47,548 nt of DNA, taken from NCBI GenBank assembly GCA_012145005.1, contig GCA_012145005.1_3029.1; one strand, given 5' to 3'. Below, piece by piece: positions 1,413-4,949 of the stretch (positions within the stretch are counted from its first letter, which is position 1; every line of letters starts with the position of its first letter). The DNA comes from a phage. The notes below the pieces were generated by a model that had not been told where the DNA came from, searched no databases, and worked only from the letters and a program-made list of their open reading frames with translations. Position numbers and translations under genes: made by a program.

Positions 1413-2381
<969 letters not shown>

Positions 2382-2385
2382 AGTT

Positions 2386-2415
2386 GTTTACTTTCTCCTA
2401 GAACTGTGATAGTAT
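2386..2415 (+). promoter_or_regulatory. T4-type early promoter
   Basis: GTTTAC, 17-18 bp spacer, TAGTAT; inverted repeat ACTGTGA/TCACAGT flanks the -10. Confidence 0.6.
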
Positions 2416-2440
2416 ATTCACAGTTACTTGGAGGGATAAA

Positions 2441-2857
2441 ATGACTCGTATTAATTTGACTTTAGTATCTGAACTTGCTGATCAACATTTAATCGCAGAA
2501 TACCGTGAATTGCCGCGTGTTTTTGGTATAGTTCGTAAGCATGTGGCAAACGGTAAGCGCGTTAAAGATTTTAAAATATCTTCCGAGTTTATTTTAGGTT
2601 CTGGTCATGTTACGTTCTTTTACGATAAGTTAGAATTTTTGCGAAAGCGTCAATTAGACATTATAACGGAATGCTTAAAACGCGGGTTCAGTATAAAAGA
2701 TACTGAAGTTCCTGACATCAGCGATATTCCAATAGAATGGAAAAATGATTATAATCCATGCAAATCAGCTATTAAATTGAGTCAACAACGACTTGATGAA
2801 AAAATTTTAATGAAACCACATTGGTATAAGTATTACGGTAAAAATATTTACATTTAA
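2441..2857 (+). CDS. denV: endonuclease V, pyrimidine-dimer DNA glycosylase
   Basis: 138 aa; [17 protein letters not shown]...[11 protein letters not shown] matches T4 DenV. Confidence 0.95.
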
Positions 2858-2866
2858 AGGAAACCC

Positions 2867-3340
2867 ATGAAAACATATCAAGAATTTATCACTGAAGCAG
2901 CTATTAATTCTCAAATTATTGCTGAATCTTTTACTGATCTTTTGAAATTTAAAAAAGGTCAAAAAATTACTGCTGTATTGGATGATGGTACAGAAGTTGA
3001 GATGGATGTACAGGGATATAATTATGCAGTAGATGGAAAATTGTATAATAAATCTCATGCTAAATTTGATTCATTTGACGACTTTGTTAATGCAGTTGAA
3101 GATGAAAAAACTCGTCGATCCATTGCAACTGGTGATGCTAAGGTTCTTATGGCACATGGTCATGAACGCATTCGCGCTAAACAGAATAAAATGGGTGAAG
3201 ATAATTTTGCATTAGTTGGTTATCAATCTGGTAAACAAACTTATGGTTATCAGCGTACTGCTACCATGTATAACAAAAATGGTAAAATCGCTTTCGTGAA
3301 TAGTAAAGGTTCTGTTCAGTACGTCAAATCATTCAAATAA
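2867..3340 (+). CDS. internal head protein (IP family) with capsid-targeting sequence
   Basis: N-terminus MKTYQEFITEAA is the T4 internal-protein capsid targeting sequence; 157 aa does not match IPI/IPII/IPIII lengths. Confidence 0.75.
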   Translation: MKTYQEFITEAAINSQIIAESFTDLLKFKKGQKITAVLDDGTEVEMDVQGYNYAVDGKLYNKSHAKFDSFDDFVNAVEDEKTRRSIATGDAKVLMAHGHERIRAKQNKMGEDNFALVGYQSGKQTYGYQRTATMYNKNGKIAFVNSKGSVQYVKSFK

Positions 3341-3493
3341 GCAAATAAGAAATATGGGAACAAGCTGGACCTCATGATTCTATGAGGGATTCCCGCCAAC
3401 CTGTAATAAGGTCGAGCCCAAGTGCGGTAATGGGTAAATACAGAAATGGACAATTCATGCGCCACGGAATGGCCCAAACTTAGAGAGAATAAA

Positions 3494-4033
3494 ATGAGAA
3501 CATTTTTAACTGGTCCTTATCTATCCCTGATGAATGCTTTTACACACCATTCTGATGCTAGAGTAGAAGAAATTTGTAAGAATGATTATCTTCCACCAAT
3601 GGAAGATATGCTCAAACAGTACTGCACACTTCGATTAGATGGTGGACGTCAATCCGGTAAATCAATTGCTGTGACTAACTTTGCTGCTAATTGGCTGTAT
3701 GATGGTGGAACAGTTATTGTTCTTTCTAATACTTCAGCTTACGCTAAAATTTCTGCAGGCCACATTAAAAAAGAATTTTCTCGTTATTCTAGCGATGATA
3801 TTCGATTCCGTTTATTTACCGATTCTGTCCGTAGTTTTATCGGTAATAAAGGAAGCAAGTTCAGAGGTTTATCGCTTTCGCGGATTTTGTATATAATCGA
3901 TGAGCCTGTTAAATCTCCTGATATGGATAAAATTTACGATATTCATATTGAAACTGTGCAACACTGCTGCAATAGTAAATGTTGCATTGGTGGTATTACT
4001 CGTCCACAGTTTTTCATAATCGGAATGCAATGA
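3494..4033 (+). CDS. P-loop NTPase-like hypothetical protein
   Basis: Walker A-like GGRQSGKS and Walker B-like LYIIDEP; start at ATG 3494 preferred over 3446. Confidence 0.45.
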   Translation: MRTFLTGPYLSLMNAFTHHSDARVEEICKNDYLPPMEDMLKQYCTLRLDGGRQSGKSIAVTNFAANWLYDGGTVIVLSNTSAYAKISAGHIKKEFSRYSSDDIRFRLFTDSVRSFIGNKGSKFRGLSLSRILYIIDEPVKSPDMDKIYDIHIETVQHCCNSKCCIGGITRPQFFIIGMQ

Positions 4034-4728: not shown

Positions 4729-4949
4729 TGGCAAAGATAATTATTGAAGGTTCTAAAGATGTGCTAAATGCTTTCGCCGAGTGGTTTAGTAATTCAGGCG
4801 AACAGCAATTTAATGAAGCCTGGAATATGGGTGATATTGATGGAATTTATCCTACGACAGAAATTTCTGTTCAAGGATATGGCATTCATGAACCTATTCG
4901 TTTAGTTGAATATGATTTATGCACTGGTGAGGAAGTCAAATATGATTGA
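4728..4949 (+). CDS. hypothetical protein
   Basis: ORF track; coupled starts/stops. Confidence 0.45.
   Translation: MAKIIIEGSKDVLNAFAEWFSNSGEQQFNEAWNMGDIDGIYPTTEISVQGYGIHEPIRLVEYDLCTGEEVKYD

Follow-up and report, generated by a model that had tools for sequence, protein, structure and literature searches.

Ip4 (ipIV), a conserved internal protein of T4-like phages with a capsid-targeting sequence and a possible anti-defence role, and a conserved RNA element beside its gene

The window, by which we mean the whole stretch of 47,548 nucleotides of phage DNA analysed here (NCBI GenBank assembly GCA_012145005.1, contig GCA_012145005.1_3029.1), contains between denV and vs.8 an open reading frame for a protein of 157 amino acids beginning with MKTYQEFITEAA. 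Its ATG lies 9 nt downstream of the denV stop codon (2855..2857) and 5 nt downstream of the Shine-Dalgarno sequence AAGGA. The genes nudE, e (lysozyme) and denV are found upstream and vs.8 downstream, and the surrounding 12 kb are 96-97% identical to Tequatrovirus phages, e.g. wV7 and RB51. The features of the locus are collected in Table 1.

Table 1. Features in and around the Ip4 gene (coordinates of the window; the arrow marks a predicted protease cut)
Feature	Position	Strand	Remarks
Two perfect T4 late-promoter boxes TATAAATA	1853 and 1866 (1853..1873)	+	Upstream of e
Shine-Dalgarno sequence AAGGA for Ip4	2857..2861	+	Read from the sequence; overlaps the denV stop
Ip4 (ipIV) coding sequence	2867..3340, including stop	+	ATG start, 157-aa precursor; ORF list, DUF7412, PHROG 3155
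Capsid-targeting sequence, residues 1-10 (MKTYQEFITE)	2867..2896	+	Ends in predicted gp21 site I-T-E↓A
Variable linker, residues 11-20	2897..2926	+	Ends in second candidate protease site [I/L/M]-x-E20↓S
Mature domain (predicted), residues 21-157	2927..3337	+	Basic (pI about 9.3), 15.4 kDa, alpha/beta, strongly conserved
Conserved, probably structured RNA element, ~125 nt	3356..3480	+	Right-hand boundary of the cassette site, directly upstream of vs.8
Covariance-model core of the RNA element	3390..3442	+	71.6 bits, single copy in the window

The reading frame is almost certainly the gene of Ip4, a member of an already named family. Pfam DUF7412 matched residues 1-157 over profile positions 1-158 (E = 1.8e-95; 317.8 bits at a cutoff of 27) and PHROG 3155, described as internal virion protein, matched 157 of 157 positions (E = 2e-101). 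These full-length matches, together with the excess of synonymous differences from T2 and RB51 (see below), indicate a real gene rather than a chance open reading frame. With tblastn Ip4 was found in 471 of 50,697 phage records. The copy in phage JLBYU22 is identical to that in the window (100%); the proteins of RB51 (99.4% identity; sole difference V150I) and T2 (98.7%; A76T and V150I) are one or two conservative substitutions away, and that of K3 (UniProt Q38388) is 97% identical. The Ip nomenclature reportedly goes back to a paper by Repoila in 1994. RB51 is annotated with 'Ip4, internal virion protein, similar to T2, RB70 Ip4', the record of phage Kha5h carries the gene name ipIV, and in a preprint of 2025 ipIV is used routinely as the name of the T2 gene. 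From the identity over the full length (97-99.4% for T2, K3 and RB51), the position between e/denV and vs.8 and the targeting sequence in common, the Ip4 of T2, K3, RB51 and RB70 (Q38388; YP_002854082.1; DUF7412; PHROG 3155) is the same gene as the one in the window. An earlier note, made from the sequence alone, had called the protein non-canonical; it is instead the Ip4 of T2, K3, RB51 and hundreds more phages, so that the gene call itself, being already named, annotated and present in Pfam and PHROGs, adds nothing.

What the earlier note had said of the N-terminus was borne out. The first ten residues agree in nine positions with MKTYQEFIAE, the capsid-targeting sequence (CTS) of T4 IPII and IPIII, and no second open reading frame of the CTS type is present in the 47.5-kb window. 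Also correct was that the protein is none of the three internal proteins of T4, whose lengths the note had given correctly (IPI 95 aa, IPII 100 aa, IPIII 193 aa). BLASTP, run because full-length identity to IPII or IPIII would have spoken against a distinct protein, aligned Ip4 with IPIII in residues 2-13 only and with IPII in addition in a weak stretch past the CTS (about 30% identity); PHROG matches to other internal-protein families mostly covered only the first 13-30 residues.

The CTS ends in the motif [L/I]-x-E↓ of the prohead protease gp21, present in Ip4 as I8-T9-E10↓A11 (a match to the motif only). E10 is invariant, with I or L at -2, in 14 of 14 family members. The tetrapeptide ITE↓A is identical to the processing site of T4 IPI, which must be cut after residue 19 (...STITE↓ATL...), since the precursor has 95 aa and IPI* has 76 aa. 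The linker that follows ends in a second glutamate, E20, likewise invariant in 14 of 14 members with I, L or M at -2, whereas the residues in between vary; in the structural model residues 14-20 have a pLDDT below 50 and are modelled as disordered. The invariant E20 behind a variable, disordered linker makes it possible that a second cut occurs at IAE20↓S, which would yield a product of 137 aa.

Remote homologues of Ip4 with only 34-37% identity begin with a variant of the signal, MNFxxFLNE↓S (MNFEQFLNE↓S, MNFKDFLNE↓S), although the rest of their N-terminus has diverged, and this retention argues for a functional targeting signal. We consider it probable that Ip4 is packaged into the head. That the CTS is vestigial, and Ip4 an ordinary cytoplasmic early or late protein that is not packaged, appears very improbable, because the CTS and both glutamate sites have been kept in the homologues with 34-37% identity, which speaks for selection on the signal itself. 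Such a view could draw on the searchable literature, in which we found no paper with data on Ip4 in virions, its cleavage or its injection, and on the lack of a dedicated late promoter directly upstream of Ip4, a lack that counts against a packaged cargo.

There are only three perfect matches to TATAAATA in the whole window. The two upstream of e are the closest ones from which late transcripts could extend over e, denV and Ip4, in that case by read-through; no terminator-like site was found in 2300..3600. Directly upstream of Ip4 there is no convincing promoter. A dedicated late promoter is unsupported, as matches to TATAAATA with one mismatch occur at chance frequency, and a dedicated sigma-70 promoter is unsupported, as the sigma-70 scan stayed at background.

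The order of genes at this site differs between phages. It is e-ipIII-ipII-denV-vs.8 in T4, e-denV-Ip4-vs.8 in the window and in RB51, and e-Ip4-vs.8, without denV, in T2 (locus L002, 3913..4001) and in Klebsiella phage Mineola (locus L005, 3500..3501). Since denV is absent, or stands before Ip4 or after ipII depending on the phage, it also behaves as a movable cassette. We surveyed about 30 T4-like loci by local tblastn. Ip4 was present in 14 loci, the window included, none of which (0/14) contained IPII or IPIII; IPII and/or IPIII were present in 7 loci, none of which (0/7) contained Ip4. Ip4 occupies this site, one of the two ip cassette loci, in Tequatrovirus, in Jiaodavirus and in contigs of Gelderlandvirus size, and it is polymorphic among close relatives: T4 lacks it, T2, RB51 and others have it. 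The interval from e to vs.8 thus serves CTS genes as a cassette site, with Ip4 as an alternative occupant to ipII/ipIII.

Many more open reading frames of 86-198 aa starting with a CTS are found in the same interval in varying combinations, for example MKTYQEFITEAKAP... (99 aa), MKTYNEFIAENVVP... (132 aa) and MKTYQEFIAEAAKH... (149 aa); loci with such additional frames are L007, L008, L009, L016, L019, L049, L072, L074, L095, L108 and L110. Those of 86-132 aa accompany either Ip4 or the IPII/IPIII set. In this respect the interval acts like an array of cassettes.

The mature part of Ip4 is basic (pI 9.1-9.3, net charge +4 to +5), like IPI*, IPII* and IPIII*. In the 14 family members the blocks GYNY, GKLYNKSHAKF, LMAxGHxRI and GEDNFALxGYQSGK are invariant. 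An AF2 model (pLDDT 72.8, pTM 0.65) superposes well on the BFVD model of K3 Ip4, which was made independently (TM 0.90), and a fold search with it gave no informative match, no enzyme fold and no PDB relative. Likeness to the characterised inhibitors IPI*, IPII and IPIII in homology or fold was looked for and not found. That Ip4 is an enzyme was considered because H64, H97 and H99 are conserved in the close family, and rejected because these histidines are lost in the homologues with 34-37% identity; across the extended family there is no invariant His, Cys, Asp or Glu.

Synonymous and non-synonymous differences stand at 13:2 against T2 and at 8:1 against RB51, and dN/dS is about 0.03 within Tequatrovirus, which points to strong purifying selection. 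The Jiaodavirus orthologue, that of Mineola, is 68% identical in the whole protein and 71.5% in the mature part; for the other proteins of the window compared with Mineola the values are 66% (e), 62% (vs.1), 57% (regB), 56% (nudE), 39% (vs.8) and 31% (vs). The hypervariability that the earlier note had ascribed to internal proteins therefore does not extend to Ip4, which is conserved across genera as well as lysozyme e; in Ip4 it is the presence of the gene that varies. A search of 5.8 billion proteins returned only 14 clusters (at 90% identity), all of them DUF7412 and down to 61% identity. When 1.84 billion representatives were searched exhaustively by profile, 8 hits came up, three of which were the full-length remote homologues (34-37% identity), and no cellular relative was evident. 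Carriers of Ip4 infect Escherichia, Shigella, Salmonella, Klebsiella, Yersinia, Citrobacter, Serratia, Erwinia and Proteus.

One of the remote homologues comes from a contig of 381 kb, IMGVR_UViG_3300011242_000001 (locus L011, 3822..5468), in which three adjacent open reading frames of 243, 83 and 157 aa, lying on both strands, all start with the variant signal MNFEQFLNE or MSFTNFLNE; the one of 157 aa is 34% identical to Ip4. This suggests CTS-like delivery and a cargo of the Ip4 type in a very large, distantly related phage.

The Ip4 gene contains two runs of six A (2951..2956 and 2961..2966). A database protein of 39 aa (P0020) is identical to Ip4 up to KFKK and then leaves the frame, as would be expected if a frameshift had occurred at the first of these runs. 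In a preprint on contingency loci the T2 ipIV gene is reported to have a simple-sequence repeat of at least 6 bases, and no variants were seen in five populations.

Between 2022 and 2025 each T-even internal protein whose function was solved turned out to be a specific inhibitor of type IV restriction. Silas et al. (2025, PMC12373910) reported that Ip1, Ip2 and Ip3 of T4 each inhibit one distinct GmrSD type IV nuclease without cross-protection, IPII and IPIII being inhibitors of the GmrSD variants of ECOR21 and ECOR17. According to Srikant et al., IPIII is active in the cytoplasm also when the CTS has been removed. In phage Bas37 the ipI locus encodes a CTS protein, Bas37_0260, that inhibits McrBC (HIDEN-SEQ preprint, bioRxiv 10.1101/2025.11.20.689424); the type IV systems open to attack by CTS cargos are thus not confined to GmrSD. 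For ip4-10, Silas et al. (PMC12373910) saw no reproducible inhibition of the further GmrSD systems that act on T-even phages, the ip4 of that study being equated with the gene in the window by name, not by sequence, through a nomenclature traced to the same 1994 source. Ip4 is the most widespread and most conserved CTS cargo still without a target.

T4 IPI, the GmrS/GmrD inhibitor, is like Ip4 small and basic, comes from an ip cassette locus and has an N-terminal targeting peptide ending in I-T-E↓A, the removal of which, like the injection of the protein, has been shown for IPI; it differs from Ip4 in showing no sequence similarity past the signal, in its locus (57B-tRNA), in the length of the mature protein (76 aa for IPI* versus a predicted 137-147 aa) and in having a known target, where Ip4 has none. 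IPII and IPIII share with Ip4 the near-identical CTS, the site between e and vs.8 and a basic mature protein, whereas their mature parts are unrelated to that of Ip4, they never occur together with it in the approximately 30 loci, and they have an assigned function, which Ip4 does not. Bas37_0260, compared by description only, is a T-even internal protein that has just the N-terminal signal in common with IPI-III; unlike Ip4 it lies at the ipI and not at the e locus.

We propose that Ip4 is a CTS-targeted, protease-trimmed and injected cargo that disarms one of the host's first-line defences, which would probably be a type IV nuclease, and give this reading as a whole a probability of about 0.5. 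By established T4 biology, the CTS would guide the precursor of 157 aa to the prohead and into its scaffolding core, where gp21 would remove it at ITE10↓A and possibly cut again at IAE20↓S; the basic product of 15-16.5 kDa would stay in the head with the DNA and then be ejected into the host. Within the cell, to go by analogy, Ip4 would neutralise a first-line defence against the incoming modified DNA by binding stoichiometrically rather than by catalysis; binding is preferred because of the lack of an invariant His, Cys, Asp or Glu and of an enzyme fold or PDB relative. The target would most probably be a type IV (modification-dependent) nuclease beyond the GmrSD variants already tested, and in the phage of the window Ip4 would take the place that ipII/ipIII have in T4. 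The suggestion of the earlier note that the protein is an injected anti-restriction protein is a reasonable one by analogy, since all CTS cargos of known function (4 of 4) inhibit type IV restriction enzymes. We put the anti-defence step taken by itself at somewhat less than even odds, since it sits uneasily with the strong purifying selection and with the negative GmrSD panel. With an identity of 61-71% across genera Ip4 does not look like an inhibitor in an arms race with fast-diverging nucleases.

An internal role in the phage would fit the purifying selection and the conservation across genera. Ip4 could be a structural or DNA-associated head protein that replaces the abundant IPII/IPIII, where these are missing, as a basic counter-ion or in packing and has no specific host target, as its basic mature part, its mutual exclusion with IPII/IPIII at the site and the lack of a GmrSD target for ip4 in the published panel would allow; lysines of the T4 internal proteins touch DNA phosphates (review PMC3012670). 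We nevertheless regard this as improbable. IPII and IPIII, long held to be bulk proteins, proved to inhibit GmrSD specifically; in a pure counter-ion, extended invariant motifs (GEDNFALxGYQSGK, for instance) would be needless; and Ip4 is dispensable in evolution, being absent from T4 and many relatives.

The breadth of hosts bears on a further possibility, namely that Ip4 is an injected effector acting on a conserved host component other than restriction, be it a non-nuclease defence or a host process of earliest infection. That the gene has been kept in phages of Escherichia, Klebsiella, Salmonella, Serratia, Yersinia, Erwinia and Proteus would indicate a conserved target, the GmrSD panel was negative, and no fold match of Ip4 points to a family of nuclease inhibitors. 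There is, on the other hand, no positive sign of any particular target of this kind, and all characterised CTS cargos act on type IV restriction. T4 Alt is an example of an enzymatic effector, and an effector of that kind is unlikely in view of the lack of conserved catalytic residues. We hold the possibility to be quite improbable.

Conservation, alternation with ipII/ipIII and the lack of a catalytic signature suggest a conserved binding partner that is not GmrSD. Ip4 might be an injected inhibitor of a conserved first-line defence other than GmrSD, or of a host factor, common to Enterobacterales. Although we consider this reading rather unlikely, it would explain why Ip4 is under purifying selection, in which it differs from the cargos presumed to be in an arms race, why phages of at least eight host genera have kept it and why the GmrSD panel was negative. 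If true, it would mean that delivery by CTS serves an anti-defence specificity not known before.

More surprising than Ip4 is an object that lies beside it. Within the 150 nt from the Ip4 stop codon to the conserved start of vs.8 (MRTFLTGP, 3491), which have a G+C content of 49% as compared with 27-40% in the background, there is an RNA element that forms the constant right edge of the internal-protein cassette site. It is far better conserved than the flanking genes and is nearly invariant among the window, T2 and T4; in Mineola its core and 3' part are nearly invariant, while the flanking proteins are 39-68% identical. By blastn 1,117 phage records contain it, over double the count for Ip4. 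A core of 43 nt recurs in Vequintavirus genomes with 86-95% identity (32-43 nt are shared overall), and pattern scans add Klebsiella contigs of siphovirus type of 46-48 kb with the core, so that the element is, as judged from these matches, common to three unrelated phage groups. Scanned against 185,579 species genomes of bacteria and archaea, the long core pattern was never matched, and the viral contig collection yielded just 31 matches to it. An E. coli genome match was likewise not found.

From 22 distinct copies RNAalifold predicted a three-way junction in which an enclosing helix and two short hairpins surround the invariant core ACCUGU-NNNA-AGGUCG-AGCCMAAGYGCGGUAA-NG. One pair of the enclosing helix is C-G in 14 of the 22 and G-C in the remaining 8, another is C-G, G-C, U-A or G-U, and neither is broken in any copy; in the first hairpin A-U is replaced by G-C in two sequences. 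In this structure 93% of the cells are paired, versus 15-42% when the partners are slid, and the covariation score of 0.32 compares with at most 0.12 in the slid controls and was reached in none of 500 shuffles. The G-U pairs occur on the + strand only, which is the coding strand of the neighbouring genes. An alternative inner fold given by RNAalifold for 11 sequences was rejected, because it lacks covariation and its pairing is disrupted in T2 and T4; the fold of the single sequence has no unusual stability (z = 0.13).

The covariance model found a divergent second copy in tandem in two contigs of Karamvirus size and none in the tRNA/small-RNA region of T4. In the phages that are not T4-like the motif lies 200-700 nt from a tRNA gene cluster on the same strand. 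That the RNA is a leader tied to vs.8 was rejected, since the downstream gene in Vequintavirus is unrelated. There was no tRNA or tmRNA call for the element, no Rfam 15 family at E ≤ 1 in the four phage types and no match to the core in the published literature searched. A resemblance to RNase P RNA, twister or guanidine-III motifs, which might be suspected, has no support from Rfam. The element is probably an undescribed structured RNA and, if so, is of wider interest than Ip4.

In one of the siphovirus-type contigs (46 kb; locus L071, 1737..1852) Rfam gave matches to permuted tmRNA below threshold (26.3 bits at a gathering cutoff of 47; E = 0.03), some 200 nt upstream of the motif. They are probably noise; a tmRNA is not called by ARAGORN at this place.

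The RNA element also touches the annotation of vs.8. In T4 the annotated protein (219 aa) starts about 40 codons before the position at which the vs.8 proteins begin to align (MRTFLTGP), and these first ~40 codons do not align with vs.8 of the window. In the T4 genome (NC_000866, locus L003) positions 4794..4913 correspond to 3356..3490 of the window, so that the extra codons coincide with the RNA element; RB51 is annotated with the shorter form of 180 aa. Because the extra codons both fail to align and fall on the conserved RNA element, the start of vs.8 in T4 is probably mis-annotated.
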